In this document: one piece after another, positions 3,341-15,056 of the stretch
Layout of the letters: the number at the start of each line of letters is the position of its first letter
How positions within the stretch are numbered: the stretch's first letter is position 1
From: Cyanobium sp. NIES-981
GTDB taxonomy: Bacteria; Cyanobacteriota; Cyanobacteriia; PCC-6307; Cyanobiaceae
Assembly (NCBI GenBank): GCA_943371215.1
Contig: CALRUA020000003.1
Coordinates: forward strand, 160,456-224,455
Length of the DNA stretch: 64,000 nucleotides
Direction: 5' to 3'
Position numbers and translations under genes: made by a program
Notes under the pieces: generated by a model
Databases searched by the model: none
What the model was told of the DNA's origin: nothing
What the model saw: only the letters and a program-made list of their open reading frames with translations

Positions 3341-5650
3341 ATGCTCCACGCGGTGCCAGCTACGGCCGAAGCAGCTGCCTCTGCGCCGCCCATGCCCCTG
3401 GGCCGCCGGCTGATTCGCACCCCGGACGACTACGGCATCCCCTTGCCGGAGTGGCTGCGACGCTGCGTGGAGCACGTGCCCCCGGGAACCGGCGAGAGTT
3501 GTCCCACCGATGCCGAGGCTCTGCTGGCTTCGGCTTTTGATTTCGCCTTTCAGCTCCACGATGGCCAGGTGCGGGCCAGCGGTGAGCCCTACATCTGCCA
3601 TCCGGTGGCGGTGGCTGATCTGCTGCGCGATATCGGCGCCAGTGCTGGTGTGATCGCGGCCGGCTTCCTCCACGACGTGGTGGAAGACACCGACGTGACC
3701 CCCGAGGAGATCGAGCAGCACTTCGGTGCTGAGGTGCGGGGCCTGGTGGAGGGCGTGACCAAGCTGGGCGGCATTCACTTCACCAACAAAACAGAGGCCC
3801 AGGCTGAAAACCTGCGGCGCATGTTCCTGGCCATGGCCAGTGATATTCGTGTGGTGTTGGTGAAGCTGGCCGACCGCCTGCACAACATGCGCACCCTCGG
3901 GGCCCTCAAGCCCGAGAAGCAGCAGCGCATTGCCCGCGAAACCCGCGAGATCTATGGACCGCTGGCCAACCGCCTGGGCATCGGCCGGCTCAAGTGGGAG
4001 CTGGAAGATCTGGCCTTCAAGATCCTCGAGCCGGAGGCCTTCCGCGAGATCCAGCAGCAGGTGGCCACCAAGCGCAGTGAGCGGGAGGAGCGGCTCGGGG
4101 TCACGGTGCAGCTGCTGCGCGATCGCCTTGCCGCCGCTGGCTTGAACGACTGCGATGTGAGTGGCAGGCCCAAGCACCTCTACGGCATCTGGAGCAAGAT
4201 GCAACGCCAGCAGAAGGCCTTCCACGAGATCTACGACGTGGCGGCGCTGCGGATCCTCACTCCCAACCTGGAGAGCTGCTACCGAGCCCTCGCGGTGGTG
4301 CACGACACCTTCCGGCCCATTCCCGGTCGCTTCAAGGACTACATCGGCCTGCCCAAGCCCAATGGCTACCAGTCGTTGCATACGGCGGTGATCGGTCGCC
4401 ATCGGCCGATTGAGGTGCAGATCCGCACGGCGGACATGCATCAGGTGGCGGAGTTCGGCATTGCCGCCCACTGGAAATACAAGGAGGGCGGCTCGCCAGC
4501 AGCCACAGGCAATGATGCCGAGCGCTTCAACTGGCTGCGGCAGCTGGTGGATTGGCAGAAGGATGGCGTTGGCGAAGACAGTAACGACTTCCTGCGCTCC
4601 ATCAAGGAAGACCTGTTCGATGAAGAGGTGTTCGTGTTCACCCCCAGCGGCGATGTGGTGGGGCTGCGCAAGGGCTCCACGGCCGTGGACTTTGCCTATC
4701 GCATTCACTCCGAGGTGGGCAATCACTGCCAGGGTGTTCGCATCAATGATCGCCTCTGCCCCCTGGCCACGCCCCTGCAGAACGGCGACTTTGTGCAGGT
4801 GATCACCGCCAAGAGTGCGCACCCCAGCCTGGATTGGCTCAACTTCGTGGCCACCCCCACGGCGCGCAATCGCATCCGCCAGTGGTACAAGAAAAGCCAC
4901 CGCGAGGACAACATCCTGCGGGGCACGGCGATGCTCGAGCGGGAGCTCGGGCGTGATGGCTTCGATGCCCTGCTGCATGGCGAGGCCATGGCCAAGGTGG
5001 CCCGCCGCTGCAACCTGGTGGGTACGGAAGATCTGCTGGCCGCCATCGGCTTCGGCGGGGTCACCCTGCACCAGGTGCTCAATCGCCTGCGCGAGGAGCT
5101 ACGCCTGGCCACCGCAGCAGCGGCGCCGGTGCTGAGCAACGAAGAGCTGGCCCGCAATGTGTCGGCCCAGGGCCACCAGCCCCCCTCAGCCCACGGCGAT
5201 GCCAGCCCGATCCTGGGCCTGGAGGGTCTGGAATACCGCATGGGCGGCTGCTGCAGCCCCCTCCCAGGGGAGCCGATCGTGGGCACCGTGGCCCTGGGGA
5301 ATCACGGCATCACCATTCACCGCCAGGACTGCGCCAATCTCACGCCGGTGCCCGCCGAGCGGCGGTTGCCGGTGCGCTGGAACTCCCTTGCCGACGACCA
5401 GCGGCGCCGTTATCCCGTGCAGCTGCGCATCGAAGTGCTGGACCGGGTGGGCGTGCTCAAGGACATCCTCACGCGCCTGTCGGATAGCCGGATCAATGTG
5501 AGCGATGCCCGGGTGCGCACCAATCCGGGCAAGCCCGCCCGCATTGACCTGCGGGTGGAACTCGCCAGTGCCGCCCAGCTGCGCACCACCATGGATCAGA
5601 TCCGTTCGATGGCCGATGTGCTCGACCTGGCCCGCACTGGCATTGGTTGA
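3341..5650 (+). CDS. spoT: Bifunctional (p)ppGpp synthetase/hydrolase RelA/SpoT family
   Basis: HD hydrolase motifs ('HPVAVADLL', 'HDVVEDT'), synthetase region ('YQSLHTAV...EVQIRT'), then TGS and ACT-like C-terminal regions. Start chosen at ATG 3341 ('MLHAVP'). Confidence 0.92.
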   Translation: MLHAVPATAEAAASAPPMPLGRRLIRTPDDYGIPLPEWLRRCVEHVPPGTGESCPTDAEALLASAFDFAFQLHDGQVRASGEPYICHPVAVADLLRDIGASAGVIAAGFLHDVVEDTDVTPEEIEQHFGAEVRGLVEGVTKLGGIHFTNKTEAQAENLRRMFLAMASDIRVVLVKLADRLHNMRTLGALKPEKQQRIARETREIYGPLANRLGIGRLKWELEDLAFKILEPEAFREIQQQVATKRSEREERLGVTVQLLRDRLAAAGLNDCDVSGRPKHLYGIWSKMQRQQKAFHEIYDVAALRILTPNLESCYRALAVVHDTFRPIPGRFKDYIGLPKPNGYQSLHTAVIGRHRPIEVQIRTADMHQVAEFGIAAHWKYKEGGSPAATGNDAERFNWLRQLVDWQKDGVGEDSNDFLRSIKEDLFDEEVFVFTPSGDVVGLRKGSTAVDFAYRIHSEVGNHCQGVRINDRLCPLATPLQNGDFVQVITAKSAHPSLDWLNFVATPTARNRIRQWYKKSHREDNILRGTAMLERELGRDGFDALLHGEAMAKVARRCNLVGTEDLLAAIGFGGVTLHQVLNRLREELRLATAAAAPVLSNEELARNVSAQGHQPPSAHGDASPILGLEGLEYRMGGCCSPLPGEPIVGTVALGNHGITIHRQDCANLTPVPAERRLPVRWNSLADDQRRRYPVQLRIEVLDRVGVLKDILTRLSDSRINVSDARVRTNPGKPARIDLRVELASAAQLRTTMDQIRSMADVLDLARTGIG

Positions 5651-6170: not shown

Positions 6171-7526
6171 TTGATTGAGGACACCATCGCGGCGGTTGCC
6201 ACGGCCGTTGCAGCCGGTGAAGGCAGCGTGGCAATCGTGCGGATATCGGGGCCTGCAGCCGCGGCTATCGGGCAGGGCCTGTTTGTGGCCCCCGGCCATC
6301 AGCCCTGGCACAGCCATCGGGTGCTCTATGGCCACGTGGTGGATCCCGCCACGGCGGAACGGGTGGATGAGGCCCTGCTGCTGTGGATGCAGGCCCCGCG
6401 CAGTTACACCCGTGAGGATGTGGTGGAGCTCCACTGCCACGGCGGCCTGGTGGCGGTGCAGCGGGTGCTGGAGCTGGTGCTGGCGGCCGGAGCCCGTCGG
6501 GCCGAGCCCGGGGAGTTCAGCCAGCGGGCTTTTCTCAACGGCCGGCTCGACCTCACCCGTGCCGAGGCGATCAGCGAGATGATCACCGCCCGCAGCCGCC
6601 GGGCCGCCCAGCTGGCCATGGCCGGCATTGATGGCGGCCTGCAGCAGCGCATCGGCGGCCTGCGGGAGCGGTTGCTGGACCAGTTGGCGGAGCTGGAGGC
6701 CCGGGTGGATTTCGAGGAGGATCTGCCCCCTCTCGATGGCACCGCGGTCGTGGCGGAGCTTGAGGCGGTGCGGGCTGCGCTGGAGCAGCTGGTGGCGGAG
6801 GCCCGCCAGGGGGAGCTGCTGCGCGATGGCCTGCGGGTAGCGATCGTGGGCCGCCCCAACGTGGGCAAATCGAGCCTGCTCAACCTGCTCAGCCGCCGCG
6901 AGCGGGCGATCGTGACCGACCTGCCCGGCACCACCCGTGACCTGCTCGAGAGCGAGCTGGTGCTCGACGGCGTGCCGCTCACCCTGCTCGACACCGCTGG
7001 CATCCGCCCCACCAGCGACCGGGTGGAGCAACTGGGCATCGAGCGCTCGCGCCAGGCCTTGGCGGCGGCCGATGTGGTGCTGCTGCTGTTTGACCTCTCC
7101 CTGGGCTGGACGCCGGACGATGAGCAGCTGCGCCAGCTGGTGCCCGAGGGGGCCGTTCTGCTGGTGGCCGGCAACAAGGCGGATTTGGCTGGAGCTGATC
7201 TCGCCCCCGTGATGCCGCCCCATGTGGCCTTCAGCGCCCTCACTGGCGAGGGCCGCGATCAGCTGGTGGCGGAGCTGTTGCGCCGCTGTGGCGCCGGCCC
7301 CTTGGAGGGGGTGCAGGTGGCCCTCAATGTCCGCCAGCGGGATCTGGCAGCGGCGGCGGCGATGAGCCTGGGGGCCTCGCTTGAGGCGGCCGAACAGCAG
7401 CTGCCCTGGGATTTCTGGACGATTGATCTGCGGGCCGCCGTGCGCTCCCTCGGCGAGATCACGGGTGAGGAGGTGACTGAAGCGGTGCTGGATCGGGTGT
7501 TTGCCCGCTTCTGTATTGGCAAATAG
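6171..7526 (+). CDS. mnmE: tRNA uridine-5-carboxymethylaminomethyl modification GTPase MnmE (TrmE)
   Basis: 'DTIAAVATA' N-terminus, G-domain motifs 'GRPNVGKSSLLN', 'DTAGIR' and 'NKADL', and the diagnostic C-terminal 'CIGK'. TTG start. Confidence 0.93.
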   Translation: MIEDTIAAVATAVAAGEGSVAIVRISGPAAAAIGQGLFVAPGHQPWHSHRVLYGHVVDPATAERVDEALLLWMQAPRSYTREDVVELHCHGGLVAVQRVLELVLAAGARRAEPGEFSQRAFLNGRLDLTRAEAISEMITARSRRAAQLAMAGIDGGLQQRIGGLRERLLDQLAELEARVDFEEDLPPLDGTAVVAELEAVRAALEQLVAEARQGELLRDGLRVAIVGRPNVGKSSLLNLLSRRERAIVTDLPGTTRDLLESELVLDGVPLTLLDTAGIRPTSDRVEQLGIERSRQALAAADVVLLLFDLSLGWTPDDEQLRQLVPEGAVLLVAGNKADLAGADLAPVMPPHVAFSALTGEGRDQLVAELLRRCGAGPLEGVQVALNVRQRDLAAAAAMSLGASLEAAEQQLPWDFWTIDLRAAVRSLGEITGEEVTEAVLDRVFARFCIGK

Positions 7527-8988
7527 CCGAGCGTCCTGGGCCCAGCCTGGCGGCCAGGAATACCAGGGCCATCACGGCGTAGCCCAGGGCCCAGGGCCTG
7601 CCCACCCCCCAGCCCAATTGCAGCACGGTGTCGGAGCTAGTGAACTGCCAGGCGTGGATCACGCCGAACCAGGCCAGCACCGCTGCGATGGCAGCGCAGG
7701 CTGCCGCCGCCAGCAACCGGGCTTCGATCAGGTACACCAGCATGCCGGCCAGCAGCATGGCCGCGATGATCTGGCCCTGCTCCAGGGCAAAGGCTCCGGC
7801 TGCCCACACATCGGCCTGGGCCAGGGGCTGGAGCAGGGCTGGACCAAACGGGTGCGTGGCGGTGCCGCTGCCGCCGGCCCGCAGCCCCGCCTTGAGCATC
7901 AGTGATCCCCAGCCCGCCAGCCCGGGGAGCAGGCCCAGGGCCACGGCTGGAGCATGGCGCAGCGGGGTGGCCTGGAAGGCCTGGGCGGCGATCACCAGGC
8001 CGATGTAGAGCACGATGGCCATGCCCGCTTCGATCGGCACCAGCTGGCCGATCACCCCAAACAGCCCCAGTAGGCAGGCGGCTCCCATCACGAGGCCGTT
8101 GAGCCAGGAGTAGCCGATGCGGGCGCCCATCGCCTTCCAGCCGGGATGGCCGATGTAGAGGGTTGTGGGGAAACAGGATCCCAGAGAGGCAGCGGCCAGG
8201 GTGCCGAGGCCGTTGATCAGCATGGAGCTCCGAACCGGGTAGCGATCGCCTGCGGCCTCGGCGCTCTCCAGGTTCTGGAGGGAGCCGATCACGTTGAACA
8301 GTCCCATGGGCACGATCACCCCCAGCCATGGCAGCAGCTGGCTGCGGGCCTGCCACAGGGCCTCCAGCTGCAGCTGCGGCAGATGCAGGCCAATCAGAGC
8401 AGTGCTGCTCTGCCAGGCCACCGGGTTCAGGCGGATTAGGCCGGTGGCCCAGGCCAGCACGACGCCAAGCACGACGGCCACCAGGCCGGCGGGTACGGGC
8501 CAGCGCACAGGGGTGTAGTAGCCCACCAGAATCACGGCCAGCACGGCTAGCCCAACCACGGGATGCGCGTAGGTGCGCAGCAGGAACCCCAGGGCGATGT
8601 AGCCCAGGGCAATCCCCGCGAGCGTGGAAAGCAGTGCAGCTCGCGGTAACCAGCGCCTCAGGGCGTTGGCCACGAAGGCTCCAGCCGCTTCGATCAGCCC
8701 TGATCCCAGGCACGCGATCAGCCCCGCTTGCCAGGAGAGGGTCACGGCGTCGGCTTCATTCAGGCCCCGGCCCAGGGCGGCCAGTTTCACCGGCAGCATC
8801 ACCAGAAACACGTAGGCGAACAGACTCACCGTGTTGATGCCGTAGGGAAGGGCGGTGCGGTCATCGCGCCCCTCCCGCCTGGCCAGTTGAAAGGCCTGGC
8901 GGGCGTAGGCCAGGTTGCCCACCACCAGGCTGATGCCCGTGGCCGGCAGGATCGTGCCGAACACCAGGCTGTCGGGGTACCCGAGCAC
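7459..8988 (-). CDS. Multi-pass permease, xanthine/uracil/vitamin C (NCS2/AzgA-like) superfamily
   Basis: About 12 hydrophobic segments and an 'ALPYGINT' motif. 8988 is the first canonical start (GTG). The frame stays open upstream and encodes 'KLISQSTNARPQPRWWVAGDLDGVLGLGLDNLIQILLIVGL', which looks like the real N-terminus and first TM helix. A possible CTG start lies at 9123 (see findings). Confidence 0.8.
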   Translation of the reverse strand: MLGYPDSLVFGTILPATGISLVVGNLAYARQAFQLARREGRDDRTALPYGINTVSLFAYVFLVMLPVKLAALGRGLNEADAVTLSWQAGLIACLGSGLIEAAGAFVANALRRWLPRAALLSTLAGIALGYIALGFLLRTYAHPVVGLAVLAVILVGYYTPVRWPVPAGLVAVVLGVVLAWATGLIRLNPVAWQSSTALIGLHLPQLQLEALWQARSQLLPWLGVIVPMGLFNVIGSLQNLESAEAAGDRYPVRSSMLINGLGTLAAASLGSCFPTTLYIGHPGWKAMGARIGYSWLNGLVMGAACLLGLFGVIGQLVPIEAGMAIVLYIGLVIAAQAFQATPLRHAPAVALGLLPGLAGWGSLMLKAGLRAGGSGTATHPFGPALLQPLAQADVWAAGAFALEQGQIIAAMLLAGMLVYLIEARLLAAAACAAIAAVLAWFGVIHAWQFTSSDTVLQLGWGVGRPWALGYAVMALVFLAARLGPGRSAICQYRSGQTPDPAPLQSPPHP

Positions 8989-9119: not shown

Positions 9120-9608
9120 TCAGCCGCCGTAGTTCAGGGATGAATGGTGAAGCACGATCCGCACACTGCCATCCGTTTCCCTCACAAATGTCCAGGTCTT
9201 GTCAACGCTGGTGACGCTGCCTGTGGCATCGGTGAAGATCACATTCCCCATCGTGGTGGCCGAGGAACCATCGAGCTGAATCACCTGATTCACAATTCTG
9301 CAGGAGCGCCAGGGTTTGATGGCAAAACCCTTGTCTTGTGGGAAGTTCGGATTGTTGCCAACAAAGTAAGCAAGCGCGCCCTCGCGGGTGGTGCGAAAGG
9401 TCTGCTCCCCTGAGGCCAAGGTGGGCTTGAAAGCCACAGGTCCGTATTGGTAGCCGTAGGCTTGATCGATCACCTGGGCAGCGGTTGCCTTGGCCTTGGC
9501 GATGCCTCCCTTGGAGTAATCGGAGCTGATTTGCAGCAGGGCTTTGCACCAGCCTTCCTGGGCCTGGAGCACCTGGTTGTCGTATCGGGCCGGCCACGGC
9601 AGCTCCAT
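9120..9608 (-). CDS. NTF2-like fold protein (DUF4440 / CaMKII-association-domain-like)
   Basis: 162 aa with no signal peptide. The C-terminal 'WTFVRETDGSVRIVLHHSSL' resembles the W-x-I-x-HHSS ending of the bacterial CaMKII-AD/DUF4440 family. The assignment is from memory of that family. GC is visibly lower than in neighbouring genes. Confidence 0.6.
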   Translation of the reverse strand: MELPWPARYDNQVLQAQEGWCKALLQISSDYSKGGIAKAKATAAQVIDQAYGYQYGPVAFKPTLASGEQTFRTTREGALAYFVGNNPNFPQDKGFAIKPWRSCRIVNQVIQLDGSSATTMGNVIFTDATGSVTSVDKTWTFVRETDGSVRIVLHHSSLNYGG

Positions 9609-9645
9609 CGCCTCGCATTATTGGGAGGCCTGGCCCCGAGGGGCG

Positions 9646-10503
9646 ATGACTATCGCTTGCCTGCCCGTCACTCCCCAGCTGGAGCAACACCTGCGCGCCT
9701 GGCTGGCGGAAGATCTGGGCCGCGGCGACCTCACGGCGGCCGCCCTGGCCGGCTGCACCGGCAGGGCCCATTGGTTGGCGAAAGCTGATGGGGTGTTCTG
9801 CGGCGGTGTGCTGGTGGAGCCGCTGTTCCACCTGCTGGATCCAGGCGTGCAGTTACGCCTGCTCGTGGCCGATGGCGAGCCGGTGGTAGCCGGCCAGCGG
9901 CTGCTGGAGCTGGAGGGCCCGGCTGCGGCTCTGGTGGCCGGCGAGCGCACCGCCCTGAACCTGGCCATGCGGCTCTCCGGCATCGCTACCGCCACGGCGG
10001 CACTGGTGGCGGCTCTGGCGGGCACGGGTGTGGACTTGGCCGACACCCGTAAAACCAGCCCCGGCTTGCGGGTGCTGGAGAAGTACGCGGTGCGCTGCGG
10101 TGGTGGCCTCAACCATCGGCTAGGCCTGGATGACGCCGCCATGCTCAAGGAGAACCACCTGGCCTGGGCGGGGGGGGTTGCTGCCGCGATTGCGGCGGTG
10201 CGGGCCCAGGCGCCCTGGCCAGCGACGGTGATCGTGGAGGCGGAGACGGCGGAGGAGGCGGTGGCGGCGGTGCTCGCCGGCGCCGATGGGGTGCTGCTCG
10301 ACGAATTCCTCCCCGGTGAGTTACTCGCATTGGTGCCCCAGTTGCGGGCGTTGGCCCAGGGGCGGCAGTTGGTGCTGGAGGCCTCTGGGGTTCAACCCGA
10401 CCAGCTGCGGGCTTACGCGGCCACGGGCATTGATCTGATCTCCACCAGTGCGCCGATCACCCGCAGCGTTTGGCTTGATCTGAGCATGCGCTTTGCGGCT
10501 TGA
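9646..10503 (+). CDS. nadC: Nicotinate-nucleotide pyrophosphorylase (quinolinate phosphoribosyltransferase)
   Basis: 'AEDLGRGDLT', 'GERTALNLAMRLSGIAT' and 'DTRKTSPGLRVLEKYAVRCGGGLNHRLGL'. Start set at ATG 9646. Confidence 0.9.
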   Translation: MTIACLPVTPQLEQHLRAWLAEDLGRGDLTAAALAGCTGRAHWLAKADGVFCGGVLVEPLFHLLDPGVQLRLLVADGEPVVAGQRLLELEGPAAALVAGERTALNLAMRLSGIATATAALVAALAGTGVDLADTRKTSPGLRVLEKYAVRCGGGLNHRLGLDDAAMLKENHLAWAGGVAAAIAAVRAQAPWPATVIVEAETAEEAVAAVLAGADGVLLDEFLPGELLALVPQLRALAQGRQLVLEASGVQPDQLRAYAATGIDLISTSAPITRSVWLDLSMRFAA

Positions 10504-10537
10504 GTCGGCGCGTTGGCAGTGGGGCCTGCGGTCTGCA

Positions 10538-10551
10538 TACTGCGATCAGTA
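10538..10551. promoter_or_regulatory. 14-bp palindrome TACTG-CGAT-CAGTA in the nadC/binding-protein spacer (candidate operator)
   Basis: Perfect 5+4+5 dyad read directly from the sequence. It sits 15-28 nt upstream of the GTG at 10566, in the AT-richest part of the 62-nt spacer. Confidence 0.2.
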
Positions 10552-10565
10552 GACATCGAGGCTGA

Positions 10566-11516
10566 GTGGCTGCACAACTCCTCACTACCGGATCGAGGCC
10601 CTGGCGACGGGTTGCGGCAGGCCTCGGAGCCTTGGGCATCCTGACGCTCATGCCGGCGGCGGCTCAGGCTGAGGGCACTGTGCAGCGGGCGGCGCGCACC
10701 GGCCAGCTCGTCCTGAGCGGCTTGGCCGATGTGCCCCCCCTCGTGGTGACAACTCCCCAGGGGCAACCCAGTGGCTACGGCCTCTTGGTGGCCGATCGCA
10801 TCGCGGCCGAACTCTCCCGTGCCGTGGGTAAGCCGGTGACGGTGCGCTTTGCGCCGGTGGGTAATCCCGCCAGCCTGGTGGGCAGCATTACGAAGGGCCA
10901 GGCGGATCTCGCCTGCGGCTTTCCGTTCAGCTGGGAGCTGGACATGCAGGTGGACTTTTCATTGCCAATCGGGGTTTCCGGGTTGAGGTTGCTGGCGCCG
11001 GCCGGTCGTTTCGATGGCAGCCCTGTAGCCCTGGCCGGCCGGAAGATCGGGGTGGTGCGCCAATCGTTGGGTGAGACCGAGCTGAAAGGCATGCAGCCCA
11101 ACGCTACGGCGGTTGCCTTTGACAACCTTCAGGCGGCGGTGGCGGCCTTAAAGGCTGGAAACGTTGACGGCGTGGTCGGTGACACCATCGTGCTGGCCGG
11201 TTTGGTGCGTCAACAGGGTTTGAAAGGCTTGGCCTTGACCCCCGATTTCCCCTACGAGGCCTACGCGGTGAGCTGCGTGCTGGCCGAGAATGATTCCAGC
11301 TTCCGCAATCTGGTCAACCTGGCGATCGCCCGGCTGTTGCAGGGCTACCTCGACGGCCAGTCGGACACGGTCGCCGCGGTGAACCGTTGGCTGGGGCCGG
11401 GCAGCGCCGTGGGTCTGCCCGAAGCCACGATCCGCACCAGCTTCGAGGCGGTGTTGTTGGGGGTTGAGACCATCCGTCCGATTTCGGAAGACCAGGCCGC
11501 TCCCAACGCTCGCTAA
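10566..11516 (+). CDS. Orphan extracellular solute-binding-like protein, family 3 (amino-acid-type SBP fold)
   Basis: Leader 'GSRPWRRVAAGLGALGILTLMPAAAQA' (contains RR). SBP_bac_3-like blocks: 'GYGLLVADRIAAEL', 'DLACGFPFSWELDMQVDFSLP', 'LAGRKIGVVRQSLGE' and 'LKAGNVDGVVGDTIVL'. No permease or ATPase gene is adjacent. Confidence 0.8.
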   Translation: MAAQLLTTGSRPWRRVAAGLGALGILTLMPAAAQAEGTVQRAARTGQLVLSGLADVPPLVVTTPQGQPSGYGLLVADRIAAELSRAVGKPVTVRFAPVGNPASLVGSITKGQADLACGFPFSWELDMQVDFSLPIGVSGLRLLAPAGRFDGSPVALAGRKIGVVRQSLGETELKGMQPNATAVAFDNLQAAVAALKAGNVDGVVGDTIVLAGLVRQQGLKGLALTPDFPYEAYAVSCVLAENDSSFRNLVNLAIARLLQGYLDGQSDTVAAVNRWLGPGSAVGLPEATIRTSFEAVLLGVETIRPISEDQAAPNAR

Positions 11517-11549
11517 CCGGTTCGCTGATTCCCCTCCTCCGTTGCTGAC

Positions 11550-11948
11550 ATGGCGTTGTTCAACCGCTCCCATCTGTTTGGCCTGTTGCTGCTGGTCTCC
11601 CTGCCGCTCGATGGGGCGGCTGCCTTGGCCCTGGCCAGCGTCCAGGCCCCCCCCGCGAGCCCAAGCATCGAGGAACGGCTGAGCCGGATTGCGGCGGCCG
11701 TGCAGGAGCGTGAGGGCTCGCTGGGAGTGGCTGAGGGCCCAGCAGGTGTTGCCGACGATGCCCTCTCCTACGTGTTCGTGAACGGCTCCGGGCTGGGTTG
11801 GGGCAACGGTGGTTTCAACAATGGCGGCTTCTACAACGGCGGATTTAATAACGGCGGTTTCACGAACGGCGGCTTCTACAACGGGGGCTTCCGCAACGGC
11901 GGTTTCCGCAATGGCGGCTTCTTCAACGGCGGCCGCTACTGGCGCTGA
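11550..11948 (+). CDS. Secreted Gly/Asn/Phe-rich pentapeptide-repeat protein, putative radical SAM substrate (RiPP-like precursor)
   Basis: 132 aa. It has a Sec-type leader ('MALFNRSHLFGLLLLVSLPLDGAAALALASVQA'), an acidic helical spacer, then 'WGNGGFNNGGFYNGGFNNGGFTNGGFYNGGFRNGGFRNGGFFNGGRYWR'. No Cys. The stop shares TGATG with the radical SAM start. Confidence 0.85.
   Translation: MALFNRSHLFGLLLLVSLPLDGAAALALASVQAPPASPSIEERLSRIAAAVQEREGSLGVAEGPAGVADDALSYVFVNGSGLGWGNGGFNNGGFYNGGFNNGGFTNGGFYNGGFRNGGFRNGGFFNGGRYWR
11802..11933 (+). repeat. 15-nt-period coding repeat (aaY ggN ggN ttY NNN) x ~9, encoding x-N-G-G-F pentads
   Basis: Read directly: aacggtggtttcaac / aatggcggcttctac / aacggcggatttaat / aacggcggtttcacg / aacggcggcttctac / aacgggggcttccgc / aacggcggtttccgc / aatggcggcttcttc / aacggcggc. 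The units differ mostly at synonymous positions. Confidence 0.9.
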
Positions 11949-13141
11949 TGCCTGCTCCGCTAGCTGACGTGACTGCGGAGGTCCGCCAGGTCTATGGGCC
12001 TGTGAGGCTGTTGGTGGTGCAACCCACCCCCTACTGCAACCTCGATTGCGACTACTGCTACTTGCCTGATCGGGGCGATCGCGGTCGGCTGTCGTTTGAG
12101 GTTCTGGAGGTTGCACTCGAGCGGGTGCTGGATAGCCCCTACTTCGGGGGGGAGTTCACTCTGCTTTGGCATGCGGGCGAACCGCTCATGGTGCCGATCG
12201 CCTTTTACGACGAAGCCACGGAGCGGATTCATCGGCTGTTGGAACGACGCGGCCTGCCCCCCGGCACGATCGTGCAGTCGCTTCAGACCAACGCCACGGT
12301 GATCAACGCCGCTTGGTGCGACTGCTTCACGCGCAACGGCATCCACGTGGGCGTGAGCATGGATGGCCCTGCCTTTCTGCACGATGCCCACCGAGTCACC
12401 CGCACCGGCATGCCCACCCATGCCGCCGTTATGCGTGGCATCAGCTGGTTGGTGCGGCGGGGACTTCCCTTTCAGGTGATCTGCGTGCTCACCGCCGATG
12501 CCCTTGACCACGCCGATGCCATCGCCGACTTCTTCCTCCAGCACGGCATCACCGAGGTGGGCTTCAACATGGAGGAGACGGAGGGGTCGAATAGCCGCTC
12601 CAGCCTCGATGCCGGCGGCGCCGGGCAGATAGCCCTGGAGCAGCGCTACCGGGCGTTCATGGCACGGCTTTGGCAGCGCAGTCGCGAGCTGTCCGGACGC
12701 CTCCGCATTCGCGAGTTCGACGGCATTGCCAGCCTGGCCTGTAGTCAGGCGCGCATGGTTCAAACCGACATGAACACGCCCTTCGTGATCGTCAATGTCG
12801 ATGCCCGTGGCCAGGTGTCCACCTTCGATCCCGAATTGCTGTCGGTCAAGACGGCTAAGTACGGCGACTTCTCCTTTGGTAACGTGCTTGTCGACAGCCT
12901 CGAAGCTTTGGCCGGCACCGACAAGTTTCGTCGGGTGGCCGCGGAGATGCGGGCGGGGGTTGAGCTGTGCCGCGCTAGCTGTGAGCACTTCGGGCTTTGT
13001 GGTGGTGGCACCGGCAGCAACAAGTATTGGGAGCACGGCCGCTTCGACTGCACCCAAACTCAGCACTGCCGCTACCGCATCCAGCTGGTGGCCGACGTGG
13101 TGCTGGAGGGTCTGGAGCATGAGCTGGGCCTTAGCGCCTAA
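11948..13141 (+). CDS. Radical SAM enzyme with Cys-rich SPASM/twitch-like C-terminal domain (peptide-modifying maturase type)
   Basis: 'VVQPTPYCNLDCDYCYL' (CX3CX2C at aa 30-37), 'LLWHAGEPL' (GGE-like SAM motif), 'FGNVL', and C-terminal Cys at aa 265, 341, 345, 351, 368 and 374, including 'CRASCEHFGLCGGG'. No signal peptide or TM helix. Confidence 0.9.
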   Translation: MPAPLADVTAEVRQVYGPVRLLVVQPTPYCNLDCDYCYLPDRGDRGRLSFEVLEVALERVLDSPYFGGEFTLLWHAGEPLMVPIAFYDEATERIHRLLERRGLPPGTIVQSLQTNATVINAAWCDCFTRNGIHVGVSMDGPAFLHDAHRVTRTGMPTHAAVMRGISWLVRRGLPFQVICVLTADALDHADAIADFFLQHGITEVGFNMEETEGSNSRSSLDAGGAGQIALEQRYRAFMARLWQRSRELSGRLRIREFDGIASLACSQARMVQTDMNTPFVIVNVDARGQVSTFDPELLSVKTAKYGDFSFGNVLVDSLEALAGTDKFRRVAAEMRAGVELCRASCEHFGLCGGGTGSNKYWEHGRFDCTQTQHCRYRIQLVADVVLEGLEHELGLSA

Positions 13142-13211
13142 GCGGCTTTGGGAGAGGGGGCTAACGGCCTCCGCGGGATGATCAAAGAGAAACCTGCTAC
13201 GGCATGGCCCC

Positions 13212-15056
13212 ATGCTCCGCATCGCCCAAACCCTGAACGGCCAGCTGCGTGCGGCTATGGAACGGGCCTTCCCCGAGGCGGCGCACCAGGCTCACGCGGG
13301 TGGGCAGCCCCTCGATCCCCAGCTGGCGCCGGCCTCGAAGCCGGAATTCGGGGATTTCCAGGCCAATGGCGCTCTGCCCTTGGCCAAGCCCCTGGGGCAG
13401 CCGCCCCGAGCCATCGCCACGGCGATCGTGGAGCAGCTTGCGGCCGATCCGGCCTTTGATCAGCTCTGCGAAGCGCCCCAGATCGCCGGGCCCGGCTTCA
13501 TCAACCTCACCCTGCGGCCCGAGCGGCTGGCGGCTGAGCTTCAGGCCCGGCTGGGGGATCCGCGGCTGGGGGTGCCCAGCATGGTGGAGGAGGCCGCGGC
13601 GGCGGGGGAGTCCCTGGCCCCGGTGATCGTGGACTTCTCCAGCCCCAACATCGCCAAGGAGATGCACGTGGGACACCTGCGCTCCACGATCATTGGCGAT
13701 TCCCTGGCCCGGGTGCTGGAGTTTCGCGGCCACCCGGTGCTGCGGCTCAACCATGTGGGCGATTGGGGCACCCAGTTCGGGATGCTGATCACCCACCTCA
13801 AGCAGGTGGCTCCCGAGGCCCTCACCACCGCCGATGCGGTGGATCTAGGCGATCTGGTGGCCTTCTACCGCCAGGCCAAGGCCCGCTTCGACGACGACGA
13901 GGCCTTCCAGACCACTTCCCGGGAGGAAGTGGTGAAGTTGCAGAGCGGCGATCCCATCAGCCGCAAGGCCTGGCAGCTGCTCTGTGATCAGAGCCGCCGT
14001 GAATTCCAGAAGATCTACGACCGCCTCGACATCCGCCTCAGCGAGCGCGGCGAATCGTTTTACAACCCCTACCTGGAGGGAGTGGTAGCCGATCTGGATA
14101 CCTCCGGGTTGCTGGTCACCGACGATGGCGCCCGTTGCGTGTTCCTCGAGGGGGTCAGTGGCAAGGACGGAAAACCTTTGCCGGTGATCGTGCAGAAGAG
14201 GGATGGCGGTTTCAACTACGCCACCACCGATCTGGCCGCCATTCGCTACCGCTTCGGCTCAGCTCCCGCTGGGGACGGCGCCCGGCGGGTGATCTATGTG
14301 ACCGATGCGGGCCAGGCCAATCACTTCGCCGGCGTGTTCCAGGTGGCCCGCAGGGCCGGTTGGATCCCCGCCGATGGCCGCCTCGAGCACGTGCCCTTTG
14401 GCCTGGTGCAGGGCGAGGACGGCAAGAAGCTGAAAACCCGGGCTGGCGACACGGTGCGGCTGCGGGATCTGCTGGATGAGGCGGTGGAGCGGGCCGAGGC
14501 CGACCTGCAACGGCGCTTGGCGGAGGAGGAGCGGACGGAAGACGAGGCCTTCATCCAGCACGTGGCCACCACCGTGGGTCTGGCCGCTGTGAAGTACGCC
14601 GATCTCAGCCAGAACCGGATCACCAATTACCAGTTCAGTTTTGATCGGATGCTGGCGTTGCAGGGGAATACCGCTCCCTACTTGCTCTATGCCGTGGTGC
14701 GCATCGCTGGCATTGCCCGTAAGGGTGGAAACCTGGAGGCTGGTGGCGCTGAGGCAGCTGGATCCGGAGGCCAAGCCGCCCTCACCTTCACGGAACCGCA
14801 GGAATGGGCCCTGGTACGGGAACTGCTCAAGCTCGATGGCGTGATCGCCGAGGTGGAGGAGGAGTTACTGCCCAATCGTCTCTGCACCTACCTGTTCGAG
14901 CTGAGCCAGGTGTTCAACCGCTTCTACGACCAAGTGCCGGTGCTCAAGGCCGAAGAGTCTGCCCGCTCCTCCCGCCTGGCCCTCTGCCGCCTCACTGCCG
15001 ACACCCTCAGGCTGGGGCTGGGCCTGCTCGGCATCCCCACCCTGGAGCGGATGTGA
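13212..15056 (+). CDS. argS: Arginine--tRNA ligase
   Basis: Class I HIGH motif 'EMHVGHLRS' and a DALR anticodon-binding C-terminus ending 'IPTLERM'. Confidence 0.95.

Follow-up and report, generated by a model that had tools for sequence, protein, structure and literature searches.

A locus in the picocyanobacterium Cyanobium sp. NIES-981 raises the question of how a small Gly-rich protein carrying a strictly periodic array of aromatic-x-Asn triads is processed, and whether it represents a new substrate for peptide crosslinking. The locus lies in a stretch of 64,000 nucleotides (contig CALRUA020000003.1, positions 160,456 to 224,455 of the forward strand), referred to here as the window, in which the open reading frame (ORF) holding the array, grrA, occupies positions 11550..11948 of the forward strand and encodes a precursor peptide of 132 amino acids plus stop. 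An earlier note on this DNA had proposed the triads as sites of serial three-residue cyclophane crosslinks. Comparison with curated family models resolved this candidate new substrate as a textbook member of the GrrA/GrrM (OscA/OscB) triceptides, already named by those models. The three genes grrP-grrA-grrM form a cassette that a freshwater picocyanobacterium of the Cyanobium/Synechococcus type carries as its version of the known GRRM/Osc triceptide system, and GrrA is an ordinary member of the named, experimentally studied cyanobacterial GrrA/OscA family, a rediscovery rather than a new candidate. The curated models, taken with 80 syntenic loci, settle the identity of the system.

Identification of the GrrA/GrrM system

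Family membership was taken as a whole-protein hidden Markov model score above the curated NCBIfam cut-off. GrrA gave 71.8 bits (cut-off 31, E = 6.9e-20) against TIGR04260, entitled "GrrA/OscA1 family cyclophane-containing rSAM-modified RiPP" (rSAM, radical S-adenosylmethionine; RiPP, a peptide made by the ribosome and modified after translation), with residues 1-126 aligning to positions 1-116 of the 118 in the profile; no Pfam model matched the precursor. The adjoining gene grrM (11948..13141, forward strand) encodes a 397 amino acid maturase of the cyclophane-forming radical S-adenosylmethionine (SAM)/SPASM type, which scored 553.8 bits against the GrrM/OscB model TIGR04261 (cut-off 310, E = 1.6e-166) and 46.8 bits against Pfam Radical_SAM. 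Directly upstream of grrA, grrP (10566..11516, forward strand) encodes the substrate-binding-protein-like orphan partner of the GRRM system, a protein of 316 amino acids which gave 240.8 bits against TIGR04262 (cut-off 190), matched Pfam SBP_bac_3 and has a signal-like N-terminus of its own. GrrA carries ten W/F-x-N triads and is encoded beside a gene for an enzyme of the GrrM/OscB family, the combination by which a triceptide precursor is recognised (PMC11499958). Public collections already contain sequences identical to GrrA and to GrrM, and in them the representative of the 90% cluster of GrrA is still called "rSAM-associated Gly-rich repeat protein", a name used earlier for the family.

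Other assignments of GrrM were tried and rejected. The second-best NCBIfam match was AmcB (NF041718), which aligned to GrrM over nearly its full length at 301 bits; this is below the cut-off of 425, so GrrM is not an AmcB equivalog. The model for anaerobic sulfatase maturases (TIGR03942) gave 141.9 bits against a cut-off of 349.45, FxsB gave 101 against 370 and XyeB 51 against 450, while DarE, DynA and YhhB all remained below their curated cut-offs and the models of sactipeptide and ranthipeptide maturases were missed by a wide distance.

The agreement of three forward-strand ORFs with three curated models also bears on the reading direction of the locus. A 322 amino acid ORF does run through the array on the opposite strand (11148..12116), and were this the real gene the repeat would be non-coding on the forward strand. 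The antisense ORF had no Pfam match, and DNA of 67% GC commonly contains long ORFs that are spurious. Most substitutions separating the relatives, moreover, are silent when read in the forward frame. With the family matches, these observations leave this explanation next to no probability, and it can be regarded as already effectively refuted.

Architecture of the GrrA precursor

The translation of grrA revealed a core repeat array of nine W/F-x-N-G-G units spanning residues 84-128 (11799..11933, forward strand). The units read WGNGG, FNNGG, FYNGG, FNNGG, FTNGG, FYNGG, FRNGG, FRNGG and FFNGG and are followed by RYWR and the stop codon. As the earlier note had described, the nine aromatic residues from W84 to F124 are placed at exact steps of five residues, and every one of them has an Asn two positions on (+2) that is followed by Gly-Gly (+3/+4); its array start at 11802 is the codon of Gly85, and the true start, the codon of W84, is at 11799, a trivial shift of one codon. 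The 15-nucleotide period of the DNA was recovered by Tandem Repeats Finder (8.7 copies, 76% matches), together with a second, higher-order period of 45 nucleotides, or three units (2.9 copies, 79% matches). A search for [WF]xNGG in the six-frame translation of the whole 64 kb returned nine occurrences, all nine of them inside the GrrA array. When the residues of the core were shuffled 100,000 times, a mean of 0.37 and a maximum of 4 full units were obtained, compared with the 9 observed. The array is far beyond chance.

A tenth Omega-x-N triad (Omega being the aromatic residue), absent from the list in the earlier note, was found in the stretch directly N-terminal to the array, which reads SYVFVNGSGLG. 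This triad, F76-V77-N78 (11775..11783, forward strand), lies 8 residues before W84 and is out of phase with the array. An F-V-N-G/A sequence recurs at the position of F76 in many, but not all, homologues, others having V-V-I-G or V-I-L-G, a pattern that leaves F76-V-N78 as no more than a possible site of crosslinking. At the other end, the C-terminal tail R-Y-W-R (residues 129-132, 11934..11945, forward strand) is shared by the closest relatives. The tail triad Y130-W131-R132 is of aromatic-x-x form and not of the Asn type. More distant homologues mostly end in F-R-N-x-W, and a Trp near the C-terminus is a conserved feature.

The region preceding the core contains two further elements. Residues 1-33 (11550..11648, forward strand) resemble a signal peptide, the sequence MALFNRSHLFGLLLLVSLPLDGAAALALASVQA showing the n-h-c layout of secretion signals with a basic n-region (R6), a Leu-rich h-region LFGLLLLVSLPL and an Ala-rich c-region AAALALASVQA. 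This architecture is kept in about 70 homologous precursors, in which the best 12-residue Kyte-Doolittle means were 2.1-2.8, suggesting that the N-terminus of GrrA is an export signal. Residues 40-55 (IEERLSRIAAAVQERE, 11667..11714, forward strand) contain the conserved leader motif E-x-R-L-x-R-I-A, and an R[LM]xRI motif was present in 75 of the 75 homologous precursors recovered. By the general logic of RiPP leaders, the helix carrying this motif is probably the element recognised by GrrM.

Conservation of the Omega-x-N register

Relatives of GrrM were collected by scanning one genome per species, which gave 253 relatives; the comparisons described here use the best 80 loci, with identities of 63-97%. 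These loci all belong to Cyanobium/Synechococcus-type picocyanobacteria, the closest being Synechococcus sp. HJ21-Hayes at 97%. The precursor was recovered by the first pattern in 75 of the 80 loci. Four of the others are cut by the contig end upstream of grrM, and the fifth, locus L078, has a divergent precursor. The core statistics were obtained from 67 distinct homologous cores containing 657 Omega-x-N triads, between 8 and 14 in each core.

Across these triads the Omega residue was Phe in 505 cases, Trp in 151 and Tyr in 1. Asn stood at +2 for 505 of the 516 Phe residues (98%) and for 151 of the 162 Trp residues (93%), while Gly occupied +3 in 603/657 triads and +4 in 590/646. The X2 position was free and was occupied by R, Y, G, A, N and L, among other residues. 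Successive triads were exactly 5 residues apart in 515 of 590 cases (87%). In the close relatives L001 and L003, amino-acid differences from the core of the window fell at X2 alone (residues 90, 100, 105 and 125), with 3 synonymous codon differences in L001 and 14 in L003. The register survived even without the five-residue period: in the precursor of L078 (3540..3980 of that locus) the regular period is gone (…GGFVNGHPYYGGPARGFVNGGGGFVNAAYRGGGFVNGGGGFVNARPGGAAFRNW) and F-V-N triads are retained. This locus acts as a natural control, indicating that the triad and not the period is conserved. Of all the features of the 67 cores, the Omega-x-N register is kept best, better than the period, and the reverse pattern, in which homologues would keep their Gly-richness and lose the aromatic/Asn phasing, did not occur among them. 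The comparison therefore adds to the known family a description of the constraints on its unit, with Omega1, Asn3 and Gly-Gly fixed, X2 free and the period open to loss.

The Gly-Gly spacer of L078 has been replaced by spacers such as GHPYYGGPARG and AAYRGGG, with six F-V-N triads and a final F-R-N-W kept. Some homologues carry extra inserted Gly residues (GGG or GGGG), or runs of Phe units that have switched to Trp.

GrrA contains no Cys among its 132 residues, as the earlier note had observed, and the 75 homologous precursors are likewise free of Cys beyond the leader helix. The exclusion of thioether chemistry that had been drawn from this absence holds, and a sactipeptide or ranthipeptide class for GrrA was rejected for want of a core Cys as sulfur donor.

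The repeat units do differ at synonymous sites, GGC/GGT/GGA/GGG, AAC/AAT and TTC/TTT all being present in the array. Compared in pairs, the eight Phe units are on average 77% identical in nucleotide sequence, and no exact internal repeat is longer than 17 nucleotides. It had been suggested that this variation breaks nucleotide identity and with it recombinational instability, for which no support was obtained. The codons of the array (GGC 13/19, AAC 8/11, TTC 8/9) follow the usage of the genome, as represented by the neighbouring genes (GGC 61%, AAC 78%, TTC 72%), and the number of triads still varies from 8 to 14 among relatives. With synonymous codons chosen in the array as they are in the genome, there is no sign of selection against nucleotide identity, and selection to de-repeat the DNA was rejected as unsupported. 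The data are those expected of a peptide under purifying selection whose synonymous sites drift in the ordinary way. The 45-nucleotide period and the range of triad numbers point to an array that evidently expands and contracts in blocks.

The conservation of the register also bears on whether GrrA is modified at all. The ORF might encode a Gly-rich protein of low complexity that is secreted unmodified, such as an adhesive component or one of the envelope, with GrrM acting on some other substrate; the signal-peptide-like N-terminus, the Gly-rich low-complexity core and the position of the cassette among housekeeping genes, with no obvious natural-product cluster, would all suit such a protein. 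The constraint falls specifically on the aromatic and Asn positions and not on composition, which argues against it. The stop codon of grrA overlaps the start codon of grrM by one base (TGATG) and the two genes are therefore translationally coupled, while their adjacency is kept in every related locus having sequence upstream of grrM. An enzyme of the GrrM/OscB family has moreover been shown to modify precursors of this kind, according to the summary given in a review (PMC11002830). An unmodified GrrA is consequently very improbable.

Five of the 80 loci (L015, L057, L077, L080 and L047) are on contigs titled as metagenome-assembled genomes of Bradyrhizobium ivorense, Bordetella parapertussis, Mesorhizobium carmichaelinearum, Klebsiella sp. 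and Pseudanabaena sp., respectively. Each has grrP-grrA-grrM with a GrrM of 65-76% identity to that of the window, and the full picocyanobacterial nadC…argS synteny except that argS is missing in L015. The taxonomic labels of these five contigs are probably wrong.

Cofactor cysteines of GrrM

The radical SAM cluster motif of GrrM, C30-x3-C34-x2-C37 (12035..12058, forward strand), is formed by three Cys residues that are invariant in 80/80 homologues and align with the CxxxCxxC motifs of the anaerobic sulfatase maturase anSME and of ChlB. A second group of Cys residues, C341-x3-C345-x5-C351 ... C368 ... C374 (12968..13069, forward strand), forms a C-terminal auxiliary-cluster region that aligns with the C-terminal Cys motif of ChlB (PDB 9gm3). 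Within it C341, C345, C351 and C374 are invariant in 80/80 homologues and C368 is found in 52/80, and outside it C265 is found in 67/80; C265 and C368, two of the Cys residues expected of a SPASM domain, are thus conserved in part only. It is plausible from these residues that GrrM binds at least one auxiliary cluster, and the ligation of auxiliary clusters in this family may be non-canonical. A further pair in the middle of the protein, C124-D-C126 (12317..12325), belongs neither to the radical SAM motif nor to the C-terminal group of Cys residues, with C124 present in 80/80 and C126 in 79/80 homologues.

When GrrM was compared by sequence with solved structures, the nearest were anSME (PDB 4k37, E = 3.9e-21) and the triceptide synthase ChlB (PDB 9gm3). 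anSME shares the rSAM/SPASM fold class and is the best sequence match among solved structures; it differs in oxidising Cys or Ser to formylglycine in sulfatases, and a sulfatase substrate is not present here. ChlB (PDB 9gm3/9gmc) stands closest among the cyclophane synthases of solved structure and aligns with residues 23-382 of GrrM, including CxxxCxxC and C..C.....CGGG. The relationship is nevertheless distant (E = 1.7e-14, 57 bits), the native motif of ChlB being Tyr-Asp-Arg and its precursor not being Gly-rich.

Predicted crosslinking of GrrA

Triceptides contain three-residue cyclophanes in which an aromatic residue is crosslinked to a Cbeta within Omega1-X2-X3 motifs, and about 3,900 putative pathways have been counted (PMC11499958). 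In work by Nguyen et al. (2020 Nat Chem 12:1042), as summarised in a 2024 review, XncB, OscB (IPR026357) and MscB, all rSAM enzymes of the SPASM type, were co-expressed with their precursors and two-dimensional nuclear magnetic resonance identified C-C linked i/i+2 three-residue cyclophanes (PMC11002830). By the same summary, OscB joins Trp through its C7 to the Cbeta of Asn or Asp, and Phe through its C4 to that of Asn (PMC11002830), and on Phe motifs OscB, XncB and MscB all form paracyclophanes (PMC11499958). The statement in the earlier note that rSAM/SPASM triceptide maturases join an aromatic ring carbon to the Cbeta of X3 agrees with this published OscB biology.

The system most like the one in the window is OscA/OscB of an Oscillatoriales cyanobacterium, which belongs to the same TIGR04260/TIGR04261 families and pairs a Gly-rich precursor containing repeated Trp/Phe-x-Asn with an adjoining rSAM/SPASM enzyme. 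The host in that case is filamentous, whereas here it is a unicellular picocyanobacterium and the core is very regular and dominated by Phe (8 Phe, 1 Trp). Nothing in the sequences suggests a chemistry different from that of OscB. XncA/XncB (Xye) and MscB (Fxs) likewise rely on an rSAM/SPASM enzyme to join an aromatic carbon to the Cbeta of residue i+2 in Omega1-X2-X3; they differ in enzyme family, host, precursor family and motif (Trp-C6 to Arg/Asn, Phe to Ser).

The preferred interpretation is that GrrM crosslinks the W/F-x-N triads of GrrA into three-residue cyclophanes, to which a probability of roughly 0.85 is assigned. It builds on the observed gene identities, motif, conservation, cofactor cysteines, operon arrangement and synteny, with the crosslink chemistry and regiochemistry taken by analogy from the homologue OscB. 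The proposal in the earlier note that each W/F-x-N triad is a crosslink site gains support from the TIGR04260/TIGR04261 matches, from the chemistry of OscB and from the conserved register, suggesting that every triad of GrrA is modified; its count of up to nine may have to be raised to ten with F76-V-N78.

The substrate would consist of the signal-like N-terminus, the helical leader motif ExRLxRI, the Gly-rich core of nine units with its upstream F-V-N, and the RYWR tail. GrrM is expected to hold a [4Fe-4S] cluster through C30/C34/C37 and to cleave SAM reductively to a 5'-deoxyadenosyl radical, which in each Omega1-X2-X3 triad would take a hydrogen atom from Asn (X3) at its Cbeta. The resulting Cbeta radical would attack the aromatic ring two residues upstream, at C4 of Phe to give a paracyclophane or at C7 of Trp. 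Loss of one electron and of a proton, in which the auxiliary cluster or clusters at the C-terminus presumably take part, would then restore aromaticity, with 2 Da lost per ring. The Gly-Gly pairs would serve as flexible spacers between successive small strained rings. The predicted product has 9 or 10 rings and a mass change of -18 or -20 Da, with one Trp and eight Phe cyclophanes in the array. After modification GrrA could be exported through its signal-like N-terminus and so meet the periplasmic-binding-protein-like GrrP.

Several points weigh against this interpretation. The crosslinking of this particular GrrA, the number of rings and the use of F76-V-N78 are predictions from sequence. The chemistry of OscB is drawn from the summary of a review and from the titles of references, and GrrM has been likened to OscB by family model rather than by percent identity. 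The seven-Cys pattern of SPASM domains is not obvious in GrrM, only four C-terminal Cys residues being invariant. The cassette has no protease or exporter gene, and the maturation steps that would follow crosslinking are conjecture.

The dependence on the OscB analogy, made through a family model, also leaves room for an alternative in which GrrM acts on the same triads with other or partial chemistry. It might attack the ring at a different position, form C-O or C-N links, hydroxylate the Asn Cbeta without ring formation, or modify a subset of the nine units. Related rSAM cyclophane synthases do form C-C, C-O and C-N links, and their topology can depend on the substrate (PMC11499958). Oxygenated side products are also indicated for the related XncB by the title of a reference. 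The score of 553.8 bits against the GrrM/OscB model, far over its cut-off, argues for the chemistry of OscB instead, and the strong constraint on Omega1 and Asn3 in every unit argues that all units are used. Judging from its title, a study by Purushothaman et al. (2024, ACS Chem Biol) reportedly describes a uniform OscB topology across diverse Gly-rich precursors, which again speaks against other or partial chemistry. This alternative is accordingly considered unlikely, and regular cyclophane formation on the W/F-x-N triads remains the preferred interpretation.

Genomic context and possible role

The cassette is located between nadC (quinolinate phosphoribosyltransferase) and argS (arginyl-tRNA synthetase), both identified from Pfam, in the region 9544..15056. 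The order nadC-grrP-grrA-grrM-argS is conserved, and the comparison further places the cassette between these two genes in most related genomes, in synteny across the picocyanobacteria of fresh water. Many of the 80 loci are truncated; GrrP was found in 75 of them, nadC in 67 and argS in 61. GrrP is beside grrM in all 75, and four of the other five loci end at a contig edge just upstream of grrM. The sole rearranged order among the 80 is that of L073 (2152..4881), in which the GrrP homologue is downstream of grrM (3973..4881).

No dedicated protease, exporter or transporter, or immunity gene was found in the cassette. Because of the nadC-argS synteny and the lack of a protease, exporter or immunity gene, the cassette looks like a vertically inherited physiological module of the core genome and not a mobile antibiotic or accessory cluster. 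The crosslink chemistry of such systems is known and published; their biology may not be. A tentative suggestion, which at present is held as rather doubtful, is that modification of GrrA takes place in the cytoplasm, that the general secretion pathway then exports the peptide, and that it works together with GrrP in the envelope or periplasm. There it would serve as a physiological component passed on by vertical inheritance, with a structural role or one in sensing or in binding a metal or ligand, and not as an antibiotic-type product. The predicted peptide of nine or ten rings, probably exported, and its partner GrrP belong to some of the most abundant freshwater phototrophs.

A match to the sigma-70 promoter consensus, TTGGCA-17-CATACT (10513..10541, forward strand, 9/12 matches), is located just upstream of grrP. 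Two promoter-like sites occurred in the region compared with 0.3 expected, and as a consensus match the site at 10513..10541 gives weak evidence for a possible operon promoter. No terminator-like site was found inside the grrP-grrA-grrM cassette, and no Rfam family reached its gathering score on either strand of the whole 64-kb window.

Two ORFs on the reverse strand upstream of nadC, one encoding a hydrophobic permease-like protein of 509 amino acids (7459..8988) and the other a protein of 162 amino acids (9120..9608), had no Pfam match at E <= 0.001. The shorter of these overlaps the 5' extension of the nadC ORF, and the Pfam domains of the nadC ORF start only at residue 62. Because of this overlap and the late beginning of the domains, the true start of nadC is probably downstream of 9544.

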